NCBI GenBank assembly: GCA_937901905.1
Contig: CALDIF010000084.1
Span: 8,290 to 72,289 of the forward strand
Length of the DNA stretch: 64,000 nucleotides
Direction of reading: 5' to 3'
DNA from: an uncultured Porphyromonadaceae bacterium
Lineage (GTDB): Bacteria > Bacteroidota > Bacteroidia > Bacteroidales > Muribaculaceae
Below the pieces are notes generated by a model. That model had not been told where the DNA came from, made no database searches, and saw only the letters and a program-made list of their open reading frames with translations. Below are positions 43,381 through 64,000 of this stretch, piece after piece; positions within the stretch are counted from its first letter, which is position 1; each line of letters begins with the position of its first letter. The position numbers and the translations under genes were made by a program.

Positions 43381-44964
43381 ATGTACGAACAAGACGGACG
43401 TGGCTTATACATCGCACACAGCGACAACGGCCCTATTAGCATTACCGCTCGCATGGCAAATCGCCACGGGTTGATTGCCGGTGCAACCGGCACGGGTAAG
43501 ACGGTTTCACTACAAGTGTTAGCCGAAACATTTTCTCAAATGGGAGTTCCCTGTTTCATGGCAGACATGAAGGGCGATTTGTCGGGCATCAGCCAAGCCG
43601 GCAAGTTGAGCGGTTTTATCGAGAAACGCATGCCGGAGTTCGGTATTGAAAACCCGCAATTTGCAGCATGCCCCGTCCGTTTCTACGATGTTTACGGTCA
43701 GCAAGGTCACCCCATGCGCGCCACCATTTCGGCTATGGGACCCGACTTGTTGGGACGCCTGCTCGAACTGAACGACACTCAAACCGGAGTGCTGCACATC
43801 ATCTTCCGTATTGCCGATGAACGCGGTTGGTTCATGGACGACATCAAGGACTTGCGCGCCATGCTTGACCATGTTGCTCGCAATGCTAAAGCATACACGA
43901 CCCGCTATGGCAATGTATCATCATCGAGCGTCGGTGCAATTCAACGCGCTTTGCTATCGCTCGAGAACCAGGGCGGAGACAAGTTCTTCGGGTTGCCCGA
44001 ATTTGACATCAACGACCTGCTCGCCGTGAAAGACGGCAAAGGCGTGATGAGCGTGCTCGCTGCCGACGAACTGATGCTGCGCCCGAAGTTATACAGTACA
44101 TTCTTGCTATGGCTCATGAGTGAATTGTACTCCACCTTGCCCGAGGTGGGCGACCTTGACAAGCCCAAGTTGATTTTCTTCTTTGACGAGGCACACATGC
44201 TATTTGACGGCACGAGTAAGGCAATGGTTGACAAAATCGAACAAGTGATACGTCTTATTCGCAGTAAGGGTGTCGGCATTTATTTTGTCACCCAGAGCCC
44301 GACCGACATTCCCGATGTTATATTGGGGCAATTGGGTAACAGGGTGCAACACGCGTTGCGCGCTTTCACGCCCAAAGATCAAAAAGCGGTCAAGACGGCT
44401 GCCGACACGTTCCGTGCCAATCCGACCTTCCGCACCGACGAAGCCATCATGAACCTCGAGACCGGCGAAGCCTTGGTGAGCGTGCTTGATGAGAAAGGTG
44501 CTCCTACGGTGGTTGAACGAGCCAAGATGCTGTTCCCACTCAGCCAAATCGGTGCGATTAGCGAGGGGCAGCGACTTGATGCGATAAAGAGTTCAGCCAT
44601 CTACGGCAAATATGACACGACCGAAGATCGCGAGAGCGCATTCGAGGCTTTGCTTGCCGAGGACGAGGAGCGCGCCGAGTTGGAAGCCCGTGAAGCCGAG
44701 GCTGCAGCCGAGTTGGAGGCGAAAAAGAAAGAAGAAAAAGCGAATGGCAACAAGCCATCCACGATGAAAAAGGTGTGGAAAGCCATTATTACCGCTATCA
44801 CCACTACTATCGCCACGATAATAGGCTCGAGTGTCAGCAACAAGATTACCGGCAAGAAGAGTAATACCACGGGCAAGACCGCTGCCGGTCGCGTTGCCAA
44901 GAATGCGACAAGTGCAGCCACTCGCACCATCATACGCGATGTGCTGGGCAACGTCATCAAGTAA
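43381..44964 (+). CDS. HerA-like helicase domain / DUF853 (YjgR-like) ATPase
   Basis: 527 aa with Walker A GATGTGKT and Walker B LIFFFDEAH. The C-terminus has a charged coiled segment followed by a hydrophobic tail. Confidence 0.85.
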   Translation: MYEQDGRGLYIAHSDNGPISITARMANRHGLIAGATGTGKTVSLQVLAETFSQMGVPCFMADMKGDLSGISQAGKLSGFIEKRMPEFGIENPQFAACPVRFYDVYGQQGHPMRATISAMGPDLLGRLLELNDTQTGVLHIIFRIADERGWFMDDIKDLRAMLDHVARNAKAYTTRYGNVSSSSVGAIQRALLSLENQGGDKFFGLPEFDINDLLAVKDGKGVMSVLAADELMLRPKLYSTFLLWLMSELYSTLPEVGDLDKPKLIFFFDEAHMLFDGTSKAMVDKIEQVIRLIRSKGVGIYFVTQSPTDIPDVILGQLGNRVQHALRAFTPKDQKAVKTAADTFRANPTFRTDEAIMNLETGEALVSVLDEKGAPTVVERAKMLFPLSQIGAISEGQRLDAIKSSAIYGKYDTTEDRESAFEALLAEDEERAELEAREAEAAAELEAKKKEEKANGNKPSTMKKVWKAIITAITTTIATIIGSSVSNKITGKKSNTTGKTAAGRVAKNATSAATRTIIRDVLGNVIK

Positions 44965-48231: not shown

Positions 48232-49242
48232 CTACTTGTCGTAAGCATCGAGAGCGTTGCGCAACTCGTACTGAATTTGAGTGACCACAGCCGGTGGTGA
48301 AATGATGCGCACACCGGCACCGAAGCCCAACATGACAGAGTAAAACTCCTTGTTGGGTATTAGCGACACCTCAAAGGTCACCGCTCCGTCACTGTGACGC
48401 TCCACCTCATGCTGACTGTGGTGAAGGGGTTTGGTGGATATATATGCCGCTTGCAGGCGTGATGCCTTGAATTGTATTGTTTGCCTCACTCCGATGCGGG
48501 TAACCCCTATAATGTCATCAAAGTAAGTTGCCGGATCGAAACGCGGATTGTCGCGATAGACAAAGTTCTCCATCACTTTGAAGTCAACAATGCGATCGAG
48601 TGCGAAATTATATAACTTGTGATCAGATGCACGCGAACAAAACAGGAACCAACGATTGTTGTATTCCTTGAGCATGTGTGGGAAGACGATATAGTTTTGT
48701 GGCTGTCGCGCATTGAACGACAGGTAACGCACCTTGATGGTCTCGCGCCTGACAATGTGATTGTATAACGGATTAAGCAGTTCCAGCCCCTTGAAGTCGT
48801 CGTTGCGTTCAAAGTCCACCACAGGATACTTGCGACCGCGCGCCATACCTATACTGTCCTGCAAACGACTGACAATGTCACTCATGCGGTCAAAATGGTT
48901 GAAACGTTCCATTTGACGCAACAAGTCAACCGCCTCGCTGATGCGGTCGATGTCGGCAGGTGTGAGCGGCAGTTTAGTGATGGAATAATCGGGGTCACTA
49001 TACCTGTAATACTTGTGGTCGTACACCTCAATGGGAGCTTCATAACCCAACTTCTCGCTACGCATTATTTGTATATCCCCCTGCACCGTGCGTACACTCA
49101 CACCGTCGCGCTTGCCCTCGAACTCACAGAGCGCATCGGAACACGCCCTCACCAAGTCTTGCAGCGTCCACCGACGATAACGATTACGCAAACAACGATC
49201 TATCGTCTTGTAACGAATTAATGCATTCTTATTTACCGGCAT
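48232..49242 (-). CDS. HTH + WYL-domain transcriptional regulator
   Basis: 336 aa with an N-terminal wHTH-like region (ALIRYKTIDRCLRNRYRRWTLQDL) and a WYL-type core (NNRWFLFCSRASDHKLYNFALDRI). Confidence 0.75.
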   Translation of the reverse strand: MPVNKNALIRYKTIDRCLRNRYRRWTLQDLVRACSDALCEFEGKRDGVSVRTVQGDIQIMRSEKLGYEAPIEVYDHKYYRYSDPDYSITKLPLTPADIDRISEAVDLLRQMERFNHFDRMSDIVSRLQDSIGMARGRKYPVVDFERNDDFKGLELLNPLYNHIVRRETIKVRYLSFNARQPQNYIVFPHMLKEYNNRWFLFCSRASDHKLYNFALDRIVDFKVMENFVYRDNPRFDPATYFDDIIGVTRIGVRQTIQFKASRLQAAYISTKPLHHSQHEVERHSDGAVTFEVSLIPNKEFYSVMLGFGAGVRIISPPAVVTQIQYELRNALDAYDK

Positions 49243-55538: not shown

Positions 55539-55937
55539 CGCCACAAACTCCGAACCGACTCCGAACACCCCCCTCGCCTGCGACACTTCGCTCCCGACAC
55601 TTCGCACCCGGTGGTTGGTATAAGTCGCTTCTCTCCCATCGCTTCGCTCGCGACATGGCGAGAAAAGTAAGACCGCATATTAATCGTTCCTTGGAGAGGA
55701 ACACTAACCACCCTAACACCTCACGTCTGTTATCGTCTATATTTGCCACGCAGAAATGCGTAAAATTCAGCAGATTAATGGTGCAATTCGTGTAATTAGT
55801 AGTCCCAATTGATGACAAAATGACCGAAAAGTGTACTTCTTCACAAAAACATTGCCCTCGTTGTGCAGAGTTTAGAAATTAAATTGTGCTTTTGTGGAAA
55901 AAATCGGTGTTCTACTACAAAAATATTCCATAACTCG

Positions 55938-56696
55938 ATGGTTTTCGAACGACAATCCTATCTGCAAGAACTCATCTCAGCCGAAGGCAACGAGATGATA
56001 AAAATAGTGACGAGAACTCGCCGCTGTGGTAAGTCATACCTTCTGTTTAATCTCTATCGCAGCCAACTGCTAAAGCGAGGAGTGTATGAAGACCACTTAA
56101 TACAGGTGAATCTTGAAGACCGCCGCAACAAACATTTGCGCAATCCTGATGCGCTGACCGAAGCCGGTATTAACCTCAGTCCGAACACCATTGCTCGCTA
56201 TTTGGCTCACCCTTCACGATGCGTTTCTCATAAGCGAGGCATTGCGCTATGATGTAAAAGGGCGCAAATATATCGGCACCGAAACCAAATATTATTTCGA
56301 GGACATTGGCATCCGTAATACCATTCTTGACTTCCGCCGGTTGGAGTTCAACCACACGATGGAGAATGTCATATATAACGAGCTGCGTCGCCTGCATTAT
56401 AGCGTGGATGTGGGGCGCGTGCAGACTTTCAAGCAAAACAAGGATGTGAAAAGCGTCCGCAGCAACATAGAAATCGACTTCGTGGTAAACCGCCATGACG
56501 AAGGATCTATATCCGGTGTGCCTATGCTTTGCCCGACAAGGAGAAAACCGAACAAGAGCAAGCCTCGCTCATGCAAGTGGGCTACAGCTTCCGCAAGGTC
56601 ATCATCGTGGGTGACCGCTACCATTCCGGCTACAATGAGTCCGGCATCTTTCTCCTCAACATTTACGACTTCTTGTTGGGCAAGGTGCGATTATAG
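55938..56696 (+). pseudogene. Decayed AAA-family ATPase (AAA_14 + DUF4143 type), with an internal deletion plus at least two frameshifts
   Basis: The N-terminal piece MVFERQSYLQELI...TRTRRCGKSYLLFNLY carries a degenerate Walker A. It jumps directly to the DUF4143 region. The text LHDAFLISEALRYDVKGRKYIGTETKYYFEDIGIRN continues in a second frame. The tail AYALPDKEKTEQEQASLMQVGYSFRKVIIVGDRYH...NIYDFLLGKVRL* is in a third frame. Confidence 0.7.
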
Positions 56697-56799
56697 TATT
56701 CCGACGATTTTAATCAGCCCCAAAATCGTATGGGCTATATTGAAAATCAATAGAAACAACGAACTCGTGATAACGGTTTTGCCCTACACAGACTCAATT

Positions 56800-57654
56800 T
56801 CAATATTCCACATAACCGGTGCCATAGCAGTTGTCACAGTTGCTATGATAGTGACCGGCAGGGCGTTCACGGCGACACTCGGCACAGTACTTGAAATCGC
56901 CGGGATCGTATATCATTTTCTCCACTCGCCCTGTGGCTTTACACACATAACATTCGTGTCGCTGCTTTGCACTCCCTGACGATGATGGTGTGACATTGGA
57001 AGCGGGAGGTACTCCGCTGAAATCAAATTGCATATAGGCACCGGGGTTGCTGATGATATTGTTCAGCACATCCATTGGGTTAGTCGATACTTGTTGTTGT
57101 GATGTTTGTGTTCCACGCCATGTAACGCAGAATTGGTCAGACGATCCGGGGTAAACGCTGTTGAGAGAACCATCTGTATTGTATAGATAGAAGTTGGTTT
57201 TAACTAAATATGATTCGACCGACTCGACGTAAGCCCCCTCCGGTGCCTTTATGGCTTCATAGGGCAGAAAAAAGACAAAGTCGTCGTAGCGCGTACAATC
57301 ATAACCCGGTGTGCATAGCCTTATCAAATCTACCGCACCTCGTCCGTCTTGAGAATAGGATGTTTGAGTCGCGGGCACTAAACCGCCGTTCGGATAGGTC
57401 ACGTAAAGGTGGACATCGACCTTGCACCCTTTCACTTCATTGGCAAAGAATGAAATGGTCACTTTCATTCCATTTTTCCCTTCCTCAACGACATTGTGCT
57501 CTATACCCGAACTGAAGATGCTGAACGATGGTGCTGCAACAACATATATCAGCAACGGAGAAAGCAAGTTCAAGACAAAAAGTAATAGCAGTTTGATAAT
57601 ATTGCAGTCTTTTCGGTCGTAAATTGATGATAACAATCTTCTCATAATCGTCAA
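56800..57654 (-). CDS. Hypothetical membrane-anchored protein with a C-terminal DnaJ-type CxxCxGxG zinc-finger module
   Basis: 284 aa with an N-terminal TM helix (IIKLLLLFVLNLLSPLLIYVVAAP). The C-terminus reads CYVCKATGRV...CAECRRE...CDNCYGTGYVEY. I do not recognise the central domain. Confidence 0.55.
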   Translation of the reverse strand: MTIMRRLLSSIYDRKDCNIIKLLLLFVLNLLSPLLIYVVAAPSFSIFSSGIEHNVVEEGKNGMKVTISFFANEVKGCKVDVHLYVTYPNGGLVPATQTSYSQDGRGAVDLIRLCTPGYDCTRYDDFVFFLPYEAIKAPEGAYVESVESYLVKTNFYLYNTDGSLNSVYPGSSDQFCVTWRGTQTSQQQVSTNPMDVLNNIISNPGAYMQFDFSGVPPASNVTPSSSGSAKQRHECYVCKATGRVEKMIYDPGDFKYCAECRRERPAGHYHSNCDNCYGTGYVEY

Positions 57655-58386: not shown

Positions 58387-60942
58387 TTGTTTAAAGTCGT
58401 TTGGGATAGGGAATATAATGGAGTTCGTTTGACGATGTCCTCAAAAGGAGATGCGTTGAACGTGTCGCCACGTCCTGTTTTTTGGGAAGAACTAGACCTT
58501 CTCGGATTAAACAAGCTGGGGTGGATATATCCTCATGTTGACGAGCCTCTATTATGGGCATGCGAGAGAAGATATTTTTACAATGGCGACTTTGTTTTAG
58601 AGGTTAAAGGCGGCAATATCTTTGATTCACCCACAGTTATACAGCAGGAAGGTTTCGAATCTCTGATATTGAAACCTGTAGATATGGAACGCCTCCGCTC
58701 AGTCAACGAAGACACTATGTTCATCATTGAGCATGAGGCGATGGACTTTATCAATCAAACCTTTCGACGATATAAGAATATCCACGACGTCTCAAAAAAG
58801 AACCCCAATCTGGATTTCCAGCAATTGGCCACCAATCTTGGAAAGAAAAATAAAGAAGAGCACGTTGTAGTCAAAGAAGACTGTGATTCTTTTGATGTGA
58901 TGCCATTAAGCAAGGCTGAAGAGTTAGGAAAAGCCCCGATTCTAAATAGCGGCATTGAAATTTTCATCGTTTCATTCTCCGGTGGGAAAGATTCTCAAGT
59001 CGTCCTAGACCTTGTTTCCAGAGTTGTTCCTGCAGAAGATTTTATAGTCATATATTCTGATACCGGCTATGAACTGCCGCCTTCATTGAAACTCTACGAT
59101 GAAGTTAAAGAGTATTACTCCGCAAAATATCCGAATCTAAAGTTCTATACAGCTAAGAATCATCAGCCTGTTTTGTATTATTGGGACGAAATCGGAGCAC
59201 CAAGTCGAATTCATCGCTGGTGCTGCAGCATTATGAAATCCGCCCCTCTTACCAGGTTACTCAAAAGCATTGTGGGCAAGGGGAAGCAACCCAATGCATT
59301 ACTTTTTGACGGAGTAAGGGCAGAAGAAAGCCCGAGCCGTTCAACACGTTCAAGGACAGGACAAAACGTAAAACACAACAAAATTATCAATGTGAGTCCA
59401 ATTCTTGAATGGAGCGCAATTGAAATTTACCTGTATCTTCTTTTCAATAATCTTCCAATCAATGAAGCCTACCGCAGAGGTCTCTCTCGTGTGGGTTGTG
59501 TCATTTGTCCATATTCATCTACATGGAGTGAAGAACTTTGTGGGCAATTATATCCAGATACTCTATCTCCTTTTGTTCACAAGATTAGAGAGGGCCTGGA
59601 AAAATCAAAAACCACTGGTGTTGACAACTACATTCGTACCGGTCGGTGGAAAATGCGCGCGGGAGGAAGATATTTACATTGTGAGTCAAATGTGAATTTT
59701 ATGAGTACATCACCAGACTTTCGAGCTGTAATAACAGCTCCGAAGGAGAACCTCTTGATGTGGCTACATGTGTTGGGAGACTTTAATCTGCAGCAAGAAG
59801 AAAGTATTATATACATAGACTTGAGGCATCAAAAGCATATATACAAATGCTCAATACAAGACAAAAGTGAATCTCTGATTTTTGAGGTTAAAGGTATTGA
59901 TCCAAAAGATGTTGTTTTCATTAGCCATCTAAAAAAAGTTGCGTACAAAGCAACGTATTGTGTTCATTGTGAGGTTTGTGAAGTGGAATGTCCTACAGGT
60001 GCCCTTTCTGTAGTTCCAATAGTAAATATTAACAAAAAGAAATGTGTTCACTGCATGAAGTGCTTAGACTTTGATGGCAAAGGTTGCCATGCTGCAAGTT
60101 CGATAAGTACTTCTGACACAAGTATGATGACTAATCCATTAAAAAATATGGCACAGGGTTCTAAATCAGGCATAAACCGCTATAATGACGGTATTGGTAT
60201 GCGTTCTAATTGGGTTGAGAAATTTTTCGATACCTACGAATTTTTCTTTGATAATAATGACCACGGTCTCAATCCTAAATATCAAATACCTCCCTTCATT
60301 AACTGGCTGCGCGAGGCACTTATCCTTGAACAAGATGGGAAAAATATCACAGAAAGTGGCTTGTATATGGCCAAGGCTTTTACTTCTAAACCACAAATTG
60401 TGTGGGAGCTTATTTTCATTGGTCTTTGTGAGAACTCAGAAATATGTTCTTGGTTCCAAAGTACTATTGATTTTAATCGTACATATACACGTGAAGAAAT
60501 GGATATTATCCTACAAGACAGTTATCCGGATTTGAAAGATCGTACTCTGCGCAATCCTTTCAATTCTCTCCTTAACACATTTAAAGAGAGTCCTTTAGGC
60601 TCAACTATTCCCATTGGTGTACTGTCTAAAGAAAAAAACAAAGTTCTTCTGACGCGTCAACCACATTCAGAGATTTCTTTGTGTGCAGTTGCATACTCAC
60701 TCTATCGTTATGCTGAGCGCCAAAAACGCTATTCCCTAGCGGTTTCTGAGTTTTATGATGAGAACCAAAAGGAGGGCATCTACCGCCAATTCGGTCTCAA
60801 TAAGGATACTTTTGAGCGACTTCTCCTTTCACTTCAGGAAGAAAGCAACCATGTCCTTCGCGCTGAATTGAACATGGGCTTGGACAACATCATCCTTCGA
60901 GAGGATCTCAATTCAATTGACATTCTTAAAATGATGCTTTAA
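58387..60942 (+). CDS. PP-loop ATP pyrophosphatase / PAPS-reductase-family protein with a 2x[4Fe-4S] ferredoxin-type insert and a long C-terminal domain (BrxP-like / DndC-related)
   Basis: 851-aa ORF. The PP-loop SFSGGKDS is at 58972-58995, and RWCCSIMK and GCVICPYSS contexts follow. The ferredoxin motifs are CVHCEVCEVECP (59959-59994) and CVHCMKCLDFDGKGC (60043-60087). The start is uncertain, either TTG at 58387 or ATG at 58435. Confidence 0.75.
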   Translation: MFKVVWDREYNGVRLTMSSKGDALNVSPRPVFWEELDLLGLNKLGWIYPHVDEPLLWACERRYFYNGDFVLEVKGGNIFDSPTVIQQEGFESLILKPVDMERLRSVNEDTMFIIEHEAMDFINQTFRRYKNIHDVSKKNPNLDFQQLATNLGKKNKEEHVVVKEDCDSFDVMPLSKAEELGKAPILNSGIEIFIVSFSGGKDSQVVLDLVSRVVPAEDFIVIYSDTGYELPPSLKLYDEVKEYYSAKYPNLKFYTAKNHQPVLYYWDEIGAPSRIHRWCCSIMKSAPLTRLLKSIVGKGKQPNALLFDGVRAEESPSRSTRSRTGQNVKHNKIINVSPILEWSAIEIYLYLLFNNLPINEAYRRGLSRVGCVICPYSSTWSEELCGQLYPDTLSPFVHKIREGLEKSKTTGVDNYIRTGRWKMRAGGRYLHCESNVNFMSTSPDFRAVITAPKENLLMWLHVLGDFNLQQEESIIYIDLRHQKHIYKCSIQDKSESLIFEVKGIDPKDVVFISHLKKVAYKATYCVHCEVCEVECPTGALSVVPIVNINKKKCVHCMKCLDFDGKGCHAASSISTSDTSMMTNPLKNMAQGSKSGINRYNDGIGMRSNWVEKFFDTYEFFFDNNDHGLNPKYQIPPFINWLREALILEQDGKNITESGLYMAKAFTSKPQIVWELIFIGLCENSEICSWFQSTIDFNRTYTREEMDIILQDSYPDLKDRTLRNPFNSLLNTFKESPLGSTIPIGVLSKEKNKVLLTRQPHSEISLCAVAYSLYRYAERQKRYSLAVSEFYDENQKEGIYRQFGLNKDTFERLLLSLQEESNHVLRAELNMGLDNIILREDLNSIDILKMML

Positions 60943-60952
60943 AAACGAAGTA

Positions 60953-63900
60953 ATGGCAACAAAATTTTCCGACTTTATAAAAATTCAGGATTTTCTTCCT
61001 GTGTACGACATGACGGATGAGTCGTCTTCAGTATGGAGTTCATTCATCCCGACCAAACAGTTCTGTGACCTACTACAACGCAGTGTCACAGCATTCACTT
61101 CCGGGGAAATCAGTAAGCGCCGCTCTATGTGGGTGCGTGGCACTTTCGGAACAGGTAAGAGTCATGCCGGCAGTGTTGTTCGCCACCTGCTCTGCGACCC
61201 AATTGAGGACGTTGACGATTATATACAGAACTTGCCCGGCGAAGCACTTCGTGCCCAGCTTACAGCTATCCGCAAGCAAAAGAAGTATTTCCCTGTGGTG
61301 ATGAAAGGAGTTGAAAGCGCCTATAATATTCCGCGCTTCTCCCTTTCAGTTCAGCGAAAAACAAAAGAGGCTCTTGCGGCGGCCGGACATTCCGATATCG
61401 TGGTTCGTTCTGACTTCGACAAAGCAATCCGTTGGGTCGAGAGTCACAAATCGAGGATTGACGAGTTGATAGCTCTCAGCGATGAATTGGCATCAGAGGC
61501 TCCCACTTACGACAAGCTACTAGCTAAATTGAAATCCTTTGACATCGATGTGTTCCTGCATTTGGAGGAAGTTCTCGCTGTTGACGACACCTACTTATCA
61601 AGCGACAACATCAGCGACTGGCTTGTGGAAGTGGGAAAGGAAATAGAGGAAGCAGGTATTGCCAACGGTTTGATTATCTTTTGGGATGAGTTCACCAGTG
61701 TGATGGACACGCTGAAGAGTGACCGAATCAATGTTCTCCAGAACATCGCCGAGAAATCGCAAAACAACAATGTTTTTCTCTATCTTATTTCCCACCGTAC
61801 GGAGAGTGCCAGTCTTGACGCAAAAGGCAAAGACATCACCAAGATGAGCGACCGCTACGATCTTGTGGACTATCAAATGGATGAAATTTCGACCTACTTG
61901 ATTTTGCGACACACCTTCACCATCTCCAATGAGCAAAAATTGGGAATAGAGACCTGGGGAACAAACAATAAAATTGACAAGCACCTCTATGATTATTTGT
62001 GCGAGAGTAATTCTTTGGAGGAAAAAGACCACATCCAAAACCTATTTCCACTTCACCCATACACAGCCTTCCTATGCTCAAAGATGGCGAACATTATGGG
62101 GTCAGCGAACCGAAGTGTGCTTCGATTTATGAATGACGACAAGAACGGTTTCAAGCAGTTTATAGATGAACCGACAAACTATGAGTTGAAGATGATGCTG
62201 ACTGCTGACTGGCTATGGGACTTCTTCTATTCCGAATTTGCCAATGAGCCACTTTGCACAGCATTTACTAATGTTTTCACCTCACACTTGAGTAAGGTGG
62301 AAAAAATGGGTGATGACTATGTCCGTGTTTTCAAAGTCATTCTTTTGCTCAACGCGCTTAGCGTCAAGTTCAAGAGTTCGCCCGCTAAATATGCTCCCAA
62401 TGAAACAAATCTAAAGTTTATCTTCTCGGGCGACCGCTGCGAGGGTAAAATGAAGATAATCTTAAATTGGCTCGACGAAACCAAGATTATCGCTCGTGAC
62501 ATCTTTGGGGAGTTCAAAATATCGGTTTCAGCCTACAACCCTGCAGAAATCACAAAGGAGAAAGCCGCTGTCACTACAACTTTCAAAACCGCTATTGAAT
62601 ACTTGAAATATAACGACAAGTGTCGTCAGGAAATAACGAGGATTTTCCTTGTCGGAGAGCGCCTTATGCGCAAGTGTGAGCCTCAATTCTATGCTTGTGA
62701 GGAGGCTGAAGCTGTACTGCGCAGCAAATTGAATAAGTACACTCGCGAGAAGCCGAACTTTTTGCACGTTGCTATATTCTTCTCGATTACCGATGAAGCA
62801 AGAGACATCATGGAGAATCGCATTAAAGAGTTCTCGGTGGAATTTGAAAACATGATGTTCATCATTCCTACAGAAGTATTTACATCAACTGCACAAACCC
62901 ATTTCATTGATGCCGTTGCACAAGCGAATGTTAGCCGTTCTCACTTCAACACCGACGATGCCGGTCAGTTTGAGAATGCTGCCAAAGAATACGTTGCAAA
63001 GTGGAAGAACCGCATGAATGGAGGAACGTACGTTATGTACTTTAATGGGCAAAGGTCAAGTGATGGTATATTCAGCAACATCTACAATGTCATCAATAAG
63101 AAGTTCAGTCTTCAGATATTCTCTGCCGGAATGGAAAGCGTAAAACCGCTTCATAACGAATCGATGACCTACTTTGCCAACAAGAACTTCAAGGCTCTAT
63201 CATTACAAATCCTTCAGAAAAGGACCCGAGATGAAATGCTTTCTTTTGGAGGTTCTGTTCGTCCGACTAAACATATCTTCATGGAGGGCGAAAACAACCT
63301 TGTAAGCGACACTTGTGAATTAACCGATGTGGCAAAAGCCGGCTCATCGTGGCTTAACAAAATATGTAAAGAAGTTGATTTGCTTATTGAGGCAGCAAAG
63401 AAAAAGTATGCCGATCGCTTTTCATTGAGCGATATCCTTGTCCCTCTTATGCGTCCACCATACGGGTTGTTTGCCAATCCCGCTAATTATGCTGTGCTTG
63501 GTTTTGCTTTGCGCAAACATAAAGAAGATCTATTCAACCCCAGCACTTCTCAACCTGTAGGTGACGAAAAACTCAATGACATGATTGAGATTTTGCTGAA
63601 GATGTGGGATCAAGGCTCAAGCGAAACGAGCAACAAACTATTGCTCCGTTTCGGCTCAATAGAAGAACGCAATCTAACCAGCATTCTCGGTGAGGTGTTT
63701 AACCTCAGCATTGTCAAAGGAGTAACTATGAGCGATTTAAAGAGCTTAAATTACGCCAAATGGAGTATCACAGAGTTCTGTAAGCAAATTGCCAAATACC
63801 CGCTTTGGTCACTCCTATACTGCGATAAAATCAAGGAAAAGGGTAATTGCAAAAAGGCACTAACCGACTTGATTTCACTCTTTAACCAAGACAGTTATTC

Positions 63901-64000
63901 ATTACCTAAGATTAAAGAGTTGCTACATGAGATTAAGAAAGAACAGATTGACCTCTATGTCCTATTTACCAATGAGTCAAACTACAAAAACGGCTTCAAC
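60953..64000 (+). CDS. Large P-loop ATPase, BrxC/PglY-like (DUF499-type), partial; continues beyond the window
   Basis: Absent from the ORF track because there is no stop in the window. My hand translation from the ATG at 60953 gives 1016 codons with no stop. It begins MATKFSDFIKIQDFLPVYDM. It has Walker A RGTFGTGKSH (61139-61165), a Walker-B-like GLIIFWDEF, and LFPLHPYTAFLCSKMANIMG. It starts 10 nt after the upstream gene. Confidence 0.7.
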   Translation, partial: MATKFSDFIKIQDFLPVYDMTDESSSVWSSFIPTKQFCDLLQRSVTAFTSGEISKRRSMWVRGTFGTGKSHAGSVVRHLLCDPIEDVDDYIQNLPGEALRAQLTAIRKQKKYFPVVMKGVESAYNIPRFSLSVQRKTKEALAAAGHSDIVVRSDFDKAIRWVESHKSRIDELIALSDELASEAPTYDKLLAKLKSFDIDVFLHLEEVLAVDDTYLSSDNISDWLVEVGKEIEEAGIANGLIIFWDEFTSVMDTLKSDRINVLQNIAEKSQNNNVFLYLISHRTESASLDAKGKDITKMSDRYDLVDYQMDEISTYLILRHTFTISNEQKLGIETWGTNNKIDKHLYDYLCESNSLEEKDHIQNLFPLHPYTAFLCSKMANIMGSANRSVLRFMNDDKNGFKQFIDEPTNYELKMMLTADWLWDFFYSEFANEPLCTAFTNVFTSHLSKVEKMGDDYVRVFKVILLLNALSVKFKSSPAKYAPNETNLKFIFSGDRCEGKMKIILNWLDETKIIARDIFGEFKISVSAYNPAEITKEKAAVTTTFKTAIEYLKYNDKCRQEITRIFLVGERLMRKCEPQFYACEEAEAVLRSKLNKYTREKPNFLHVAIFFSITDEARDIMENRIKEFSVEFENMMFIIPTEVFTSTAQTHFIDAVAQANVSRSHFNTDDAGQFENAAKEYVAKWKNRMNGGTYVMYFNGQRSSDGIFSNIYNVINKKFSLQIFSAGMESVKPLHNESMTYFANKNFKALSLQILQKRTRDEMLSFGGSVRPTKHIFMEGENNLVSDTCELTDVAKAGSSWLNKICKEVDLLIEAAKKKYADRFSLSDILVPLMRPPYGLFANPANYAVLGFALRKHKEDLFNPSTSQPVGDEKLNDMIEILLKMWDQGSSETSNKLLLRFGSIEERNLTSILGEVFNLSIVKGVTMSDLKSLNYAKWSITEFCKQIAKYPLWSLLYCDKIKEKGNCKKALTDLISLFNQDSYSLPKIKELLHEIKKEQIDLYVLFTNESNYKNGFN

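Follow-up and report, generated by a model that had tools for sequence, protein, structure and literature searches.

Among the described systems closest to the gene examined here are type 4 bacteriophage exclusion (BREX), a class reportedly set out by Goldfarb et al. in 2015, and the phosphorothioate (PT) system SspABCD, which is said to have been described by Xiong et al. in 2020. The gene, which we discuss as brxP, lies on the plus strand at positions 58387..60942 of a 64,000-nucleotide stretch from an uncultured Porphyromonadaceae bacterium (contig CALDIF010000084.1; the whole stretch is called the window below), where the listing of open reading frames (ORFs) gives it 851 amino acids (aa) and a TTG start. 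Type 4 BREX joins dnd, ssp and tdp as the fourth established route to PT, and is found enriched among the Bacteroidales of the gut. According to the genetics of Yuan et al. (preprint June 2024; Nat Commun 2026, PMC12914056), PT DNA is made in Bacteroides by brxP and brxC where the host has the cysteine desulfurase SufS: B. salyersiae loses its PTs on deletion of brxC, B. thetaiotaomicron gains PTs from brxP, mcrA and brxC together and not from brxC alone, and pglZ and brxL are dispensable for the modification. That SufS supplies the sulfur in trans is these authors' assumption. They also report PT dinucleotides in Bacteroidales that carry brxPCZL without a complete dnd or ssp (among them Prevotella, Parabacteroides, Bacteroides and Butyricimonas), and describe BrxP, with its 3'-phosphoadenosine 5'-phosphosulfate (PAPS) reductase and DUF4007 domains, as “effectively a SspD-SspB fusion.” A 2026 survey in Nucleic Acids Research (PMC12839542) adds to this architecture an extra Mog1p/PsbP-like alpha+beta domain and, behind it, a conserved region of the 4Fe-4S ferredoxin type, and divides DUF4007 into a BrxA-like helix-turn-helix and two winged helix-turn-helix (wHTH) modules. 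It finds a cysteine desulfurase with 56% of type 4 loci, and BrxP to be without the cysteine dyad proper to DndC.

Judged by its sequence, the 851-aa protein is very probably BrxP, the PT-forming DNA-modification enzyme that opens a type 4 BREX operon. It matches the PADLOC BrxP profile PDLC02510 with E 5.9e-247, aa 1-850 aligning to profile positions 1-775 of 779. After a gap of only 10 nucleotides (nt) from the brxP stop, brxC/pglY begins on the same strand (60953..64000, cut by the window end), encoding an SspC-like ATPase that matches PADLOC BrxC with E 1.6e-130 and PADLOC SspC with E 3e-18. A public bioreactor metagenome contig (L001), which shares 15,566 nt with the window without a difference, carries the remainder of the locus: a brxC of 1139 aa (PADLOC BrxC E 2.4e-139), then pglZ (815 aa, E 1.6e-84) and then brxL (478 aa, E 3.5e-195), all three full length against their profiles. 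This BrxL is the short 478-aa form without the Lon protease part, for which PADLOC has a model of its own (PDLC02505, 482 positions). No match to a methyltransferase (PglX) was seen among the genes called within 10 kb. On these profile matches the locus is a complete type 4 BREX operon, brxP-brxC-pglZ-brxL, and thus one more such operon, in this case from a bioreactor metagenome.

The initial annotation, made from the DNA letters and their translations, had missed that the gene heads a BREX operon, although it had proposed a DNA- or nucleotide-modification enzyme, and the BrxP profile match, the brx operon and the published PT genetics of the family (PMC12914056) bear this proposal out. Its two further descriptions, of an “unusual” and a “self-contained” enzyme, have to be given up. 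The protein is covered in full by the BrxP profile, hundreds of representatives of 765-851 aa match, and the descriptions in PMC12914056 and PMC12839542 make this architecture the published norm of the family. Neither is BrxP self-contained, since BrxC is required in Bacteroides and the desulfurase is assumed to act in trans (PMC12914056), and since neither this locus nor the tested ORFs of the window include a desulfurase gene. Because both the family architecture and the family function are in the literature, we count this BrxP as already known and as an ordinary member of its family. What the locus offers to specialists is of modest use: a prediction of three iron-sulfur clusters, a conserved N-terminal domain without an assigned family, and a corrected start codon.

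Compared with B. salyersiae BrxP, the likeness lies in the domain order (PAPS reductase, alpha+beta, 4Fe-4S, DUF4007), in the partners brxC, pglZ and brxL, and in the host order Bacteroidales; the operon here differs in that brxP and brxC have neither mcrA nor a sulfur-binding-domain gene between them, and in that no brxR adjoins it. SspD is matched over the core only (PADLOC profile of 277 positions, aa 194-377, E 1e-13), SspB has a fold in common with the BrxP C-terminus, and SspC is matched by the partner ATPase BrxC. BrxP corresponds to SspD and SspB fused in one chain and is coupled to PglZ and BrxL, not to SspE or SspFGH; its N-terminal domain, alpha+beta domain and two-cluster ferredoxin region are additions that the PADLOC SspD profile leaves uncovered. 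DndC is likewise a PP-loop ATP pyrophosphatase of the PAPS-reductase family with an iron-sulfur cluster and serves DNA phosphorothioation, but its similarity to BrxP is weak (PADLOC DndC E 2e-8; NCBIfam TIGR03183 27.3 bits against a cut-off of 290.4), and DndD, DndE and DndB are not among the partners of BrxP.

All the peptide strings quoted in the initial annotation are present in the 851-aa translation in the order given, and both the ORF and its motifs are real: FKVVWDREYNGVRL at aa 2-15, SGGKDS at aa 198-203, RWCCSIMK at aa 277-284, RVGCVICPYSS at aa 368-378, CVHCEVCEVECP at aa 525-536, CVHCMKCLDFDGKGC at aa 553-567, and the C-terminal strings beginning GLNPKYQ and YSLAVSEF at aa 627-652 and aa 782-804. 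The four parts into which the protein had been divided (N-terminal region, PP-loop core, ferredoxin pair and helical C-terminus) also stand, but a fifth part between core and ferredoxin, aa 379-510, had been overlooked. Conservation was read from 75 full-length representatives of at most 50% mutual identity, taken from a family search that returned 2,899 representatives at E<=1e-3, and from a second set of 128 sequences, which also served to build an AlphaFold2 model of predicted local distance difference test score (pLDDT) 87.3 and predicted template-modelling score (pTM) 0.81. Comparison of this model with known folds by Foldseek, a check that the initial annotation had suggested, returned a core of the PAPS or adenosine 5'-phosphosulfate (APS) reductase type and an SspB-type C-terminus.

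The PP-loop/PAPS-reductase core occupies aa 191-378 (58957..59520, plus strand, with SGGKDS at 58978-58995). Pfam PAPS_reduct (PF01507) matches it at aa 194-375 with E 3.4e-32, SGGKDS is invariant across the family, and the core matches in the PDB the PAPS/APS reductases 1sur and 2goy with E ~2e-8 and the sulfurtransferase TtuA with E 6e-6. The motifs are no product of chance: of the 20 cysteines, the 75 representatives conserve exactly 12, namely C279, C280, C371, C374 and the eight of the ferredoxin region, the remaining eight being conserved at 9% or less. The pair C279-C280 (59221..59226, plus strand; 100% and 96% conserved) aligns by phmmer to the CC of the assimilatory, CysH-type APS reductases 2goy (ECCGIRK) and 7lhr (ECCRLRK), and the invariant C371-x-x-C374 (59497..59508, plus strand) to their GCEPC and GCAPC. 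In APS reductase, the CC and CxxC cysteines are known as the [4Fe-4S] ligands. The two core contexts are thus predicted, from this alignment, to form together the two halves of an APS-reductase-type cluster site, and this is why we predict three clusters rather than the two of the initial annotation; its ferredoxin pair is retained, its total is not. The fold is shared with APS reductase, but BrxP carries further domains and is encoded in a defence operon, and the catalytic C-terminal ECG[LI]H motif of CysH enzymes was not found in it.

The part overlooked at first consists, in the secondary structure of the AlphaFold2 model, of a helical linker (aa 379-430) and the alpha+beta domain (aa 431-510; together 59521..59916, plus strand). 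It leads into the two-cluster ferredoxin region, aa 511-575 (59917..60111, plus strand), which carries a first motif CxxCxxCxxxCP (59959-59994) and a second, CxxCxxC-N7-C (60043-60087), with a seven-residue spacer and no CP, both on the plus strand. Its eight cysteines, C525, C528, C531, C535, C553, C556, C559 and C567, are invariant in the 75 as in the 128 sequences, Pfam Fer4 matches with 23.9 bits against a cut-off of 21.1, and the profile of the region matches polyferredoxins with E 3e-14. This conservation supports the view that the eight behave as cluster ligands.

The initial annotation had been reminded by the C-terminus of the DUF4007 proteins linked to phosphorothioation systems, and this resemblance is supported by a sub-threshold Pfam match, by the Pfam and PADLOC SspB matches of relatives, and by fold. 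The module, a predicted DNA-binding one, spans aa 596-851 (60172..60939, plus strand). Pfam DUF4007 matches at E<=1e-3 in 20 of 62 diverse relatives (best 2.2e-9), the PADLOC split-BrxP model PDLC02511 matches the C-terminus with E 2e-18, and PADLOC SspB models match the C-terminal segments of several relatives, at best with 1.9e-7. In the PDB, the Foldseek matches of the C-terminus are crystal structures of SspB, 6juf and 6lb9 (probability 1.00, E 1-3e-4, ~300 aligned columns, template-modelling (TM) score 0.52-0.55); 6juf_A gives E 1.1e-4 over 309 columns (TM 0.52 by target), and 6juf_B and 6lb9_A are similar. Neither a whole-protein sequence search of the PDB nor one with a C-terminal profile returned an SspB chain, which the fold comparison alone recovered. 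In split members of the family, DUF4007 is a separate protein of ~260 aa, and the N-terminal domain stays with the half that holds core and ferredoxin.

The N-terminal stretch of about 190 residues, which the initial annotation had left as one unrecognised region, falls into three pieces, of which the first is indeed without a match and the second is not. The first, aa 1-98 (58387..58680, plus strand), is a conserved beta-rich domain in the AlphaFold2 model with 13 residues invariant in the 128 sequences (W6, L15, R29, P30, V31, E35, W46, P54, W57, R61, Y63, G67 and G76); the model of aa 1-132 has a pLDDT of 92.6. Foldseek gave no significant match for this fold in the PDB (best E 0.43) or in BFVD (best E 0.2), aa 1-100 had no match in Pfam or NCBIfam, and we found no description of the domain in the available portions of PMC12914056 or PMC12839542. 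The second piece is a long helix leading into the core (aa 100-130, 58684..58776, plus strand; DSSP helix H100-129), which is taken in by the alignment of NCBIfam PRK08557, a PAPS-reductase-like family, beginning at aa 102. The third is a lineage-restricted insertion, aa 135-190 (58789..58956, plus strand), recognised by gaps and low pLDDT: aa 101-190 show 59% gaps and 11% conservation in the 75 representatives, and aa 131-190 have a pLDDT of 43-62. These 55 aa set the protein apart from most of the wider family, whose typical length is 765-805 aa, and are kept in the Bacteroidales-type homologues L002, L003 and L007; we found no description of the insertion.

The conservation of this end also bears on the start codon. 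In orthologues from a dozen genomes, the codon equivalent to the brxP TTG is ATG or GTG, and the protein from there reads M-[FY]-K-[VI]-x-W-D; none of 128 relatives departs from W6 or L15. These observations support TTG as the correct start. The public gene call (P0001, 835 aa, 100% identical) begins at the ATG of codon 17 and, given the orthologue starts and the two invariant residues, is 16 codons late (window 58387-58434) and cuts into the conserved domain. We found no description of this late start.

The relatives place the gene in the same company. Gene context was judged at loci of species-representative genomes (L003-L010, L012-L019, L021 and L023), and in all 16 full-length homologues with sufficient downstream DNA the next gene is a BrxC homologue; PglZ and BrxL homologues were also present, by tblastn, at most of these 16 loci. 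Bacteroidales, Firmicutes and Aminicenantes are among the lineages that the 16 represent. Of the relatives with names, metagenome-assembled genomes of Bacteroidales and Bacteroidaceae come nearest. In the sister loci L004 and L007-L009, a gene of ~150 aa stands between brxP and brxC (L007:12503-12964); it encodes a stand-alone sulfur-binding domain, a reader of PT DNA (PDB 8h0l, SBDHga1, E 3.2e-8). The presence of this gene inside sister loci ties the BrxP family to PT independently of the genetics. It was not found in the clade of the window, where the gap between brxP and brxC is the 10 nt given above. More distant are the archaeal loci L024-L041 (Thermoproteus, Methanosarcinales, Bathyarchaeia, Heimdallarchaeota and others), which have in common with BrxP the core and the two-cluster ferredoxin, aa ~194-561. 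These correspond to the NCBIfam fusions PRK13795/PRK08557 of unknown function, whose core and C-terminal ferredoxin align to aa 194-561, but unlike BrxP they have no detectable N-terminal domain, DUF4007 or brx neighbours. Of additional note, this archaeal PAPS-reductase-ferredoxin module may be ancestral.

Relative to the closest species-representative locus, L002, this brxP is a mosaic by sequence comparison. The 5' third of the gene, its 3' end and all of brxC share 71-75% nucleotide identity with L002, whereas no nucleotide similarity to L002 is detectable in the centre (59511-60669, aa 376-761), which takes in the alpha+beta domain, the ferredoxin region and the beginning of DUF4007. Protein identity to L002 falls from 0.89 in the N-terminal domain to 0.28 in the alpha+beta domain. 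The alpha+beta domain is also the most variable part among close homologues (62% identity against 81% overall), and variability among 116 of these peaks at aa 461-500, 641-700 and 741-780. We regard these peaks in the alpha+beta and DUF4007 domains, of which we found no description, as candidate specificity surfaces, and the map of the fastest-evolving segments could guide specificity-swap experiments.

Based on these comparisons, we propose a mechanism by analogy with the described PT systems. BrxP would act with the ATPase BrxC and with a cysteine desulfurase whose gene lies elsewhere, the three replacing a non-bridging backbone oxygen by sulfur at short motifs, and PT at such motifs would mark the cell's own DNA as self. 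The DUF4007/SspB-like C-terminal module would bind the DNA target, its Ssp counterpart being reported to nick DNA, and BrxC, as an SspC-like ATPase, would drive loading or scanning. The PP-loop core would use ATP in the manner of the ATP pyrophosphatases SspD and DndC, and the predicted [4Fe-4S] cluster on C279, C280, C371 and C374 would handle sulfur arriving as a persulfide. The alpha+beta domain and parts of DUF4007, the fastest varying, may carry sequence specificity. More speculatively, the two ferredoxin clusters could plausibly supply or relay electrons for the sulfur chemistry, and the N-terminal domain may dock BrxC or the sulfur donor. A joint version of these ideas is possible, though we regard it as rather doubtful: a three-cluster BrxP whose ferredoxin pair would wire electrons internally to a catalytic cluster of the APS-reductase type, whose aa 1-98 would be a new fold docking BrxC or a persulfide donor, and whose aa 461-500, together with the DUF4007 helices aa 641-700 and 741-780, would make up an exchangeable target-recognition cassette.

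Several points weigh against a PT-forming BrxP of this kind. Its PT role is assigned by homology, and the experiments concern the B. salyersiae genes. Neither the locus nor the window ORFs examined yielded a gene for a cysteine desulfurase, and between brxP and brxC there is no PT-reader or McrA-like gene. Pfam DUF4007 (PF13182) matches aa 742-849 with E 5.1e-5 but scores 23.0 bits where the cut-off is 27, and the C-terminal sequence profile found no SspB chain in the PDB. For the ferredoxin clusters, and likewise for the alpha+beta and N-terminal domains, the roles given are ones that we infer. The nicking activity of SspB/DUF4007 is itself disputed: PMC8092258 speaks of a nickase, PMC10853773 and PMC12839542 of a binder built of three wHTH modules. 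Some of these points recur in the idea of a remnant locus, decayed or inactive, whose BrxP no longer functions: no desulfurase or reader gene is present, the start is TTG where orthologues have ATG or GTG, the neighbouring AAA ATPase gene is broken, and BrxL is short at 478 aa. The intact frame of 851 codons, with every invariant residue of the family kept, argues against decay, as do brxC, pglZ and brxL at full length; TTG is a legitimate bacterial start codon, and the short BrxL has a PADLOC model to itself. We therefore consider a remnant very unlikely.

More room, if still little, is left for an enzyme of the BrxP family that installs a mark other than PT, or PT by another chemistry or strandedness, its three clusters serving a redox or radical step absent from Ssp and Dnd. 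In favour of such an enzyme, classical SspD is without the ferredoxin region and N-terminal domain, the sulfur-binding-domain gene of the sister clades is missing from the clade of the window, and even DndC is claimed to use S-adenosylmethionine through its cluster, with the mechanism unsettled (PMC10853773). Yet Bacteroidales isolates with brxPCZL do contain PT dinucleotides (PMC12914056), and the catalytic motifs are invariant throughout the family, including the clades with the sulfur-binding-domain gene, so that another mark seems improbable to us. Least credible of all is a metabolic APS/PAPS reductase of sulfate assimilation, fused to an electron-supplying ferredoxin and unrelated to DNA. 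The core is homologous to CysH and the APS reductases, down to the CC...CxxC cluster motif, and the best NCBIfam matches are the archaeal PAPS-reductase-ferredoxin fusions (PRK13795, E 3e-43) found without brx genes. But all NCBIfam scores are far under their cut-offs (TIGR00434, cysH, 64 against 165 bits; TIGR02055, 67 against 235 bits), ECG[LI]H is absent, and sulfate reduction has no use for an SspB-like module that binds DNA. A low-GC (guanine plus cytosine) island holds the operon, and the full-length homologues adjoin brxC, mostly with pglZ and brxL. The initial annotation held that homologues occurring only in sulfate-assimilation contexts would speak against DNA modification; no such setting was found among the full-length homologue loci examined, and with BrxC next in 16 of the 16 judged, the homologues are not confined to that pathway. 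A PT-forming BrxP is thus the reading that we prefer.

The low GC content is seen in brxP (0.40) and brxC (0.43) against 0.51 in the rest of the window, and the genome that holds this low-GC island is Bacteroidales-like. The edge of this defence island is likely at 55863-56979, where GC drops from ~0.51 to 0.42; no tRNA gene was found near it. The same interval holds an AAA ATPase gene (PADLOC PDC-S01; weak AAA_14), probably a pseudogene since it is split over two overlapping frames. Upstream of brxP on the minus strand lies a 284-aa ORF (56800-57654) with no Pfam or PADLOC match, which has a hydrophobic N-terminus and C-terminal CxxC pairs (CYVCK...CAEC...CDNC). At the other end, past the window, brxL and three small ORFs of 157, 254 and 126 aa occupy L001:18402-21943; the three have no Pfam or PADLOC match and could be accessory or effector genes of the locus. 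A WYL-WCX regulator, BrxR-like and of a type often controlling defence systems, is encoded on the minus strand 9 kb upstream of brxP (48232-49242), and was not accepted as the operon's BrxR, a six-gene sugar-nucleotide cluster of normal GC lying between. This cluster includes an O-acyltransferase. Farther upstream, a HerA-like ATPase is encoded on the plus strand outside the low-GC island (43381-44964; Pfam HerA_C E 9e-204; weak PADLOC HerA and mad8 matches).

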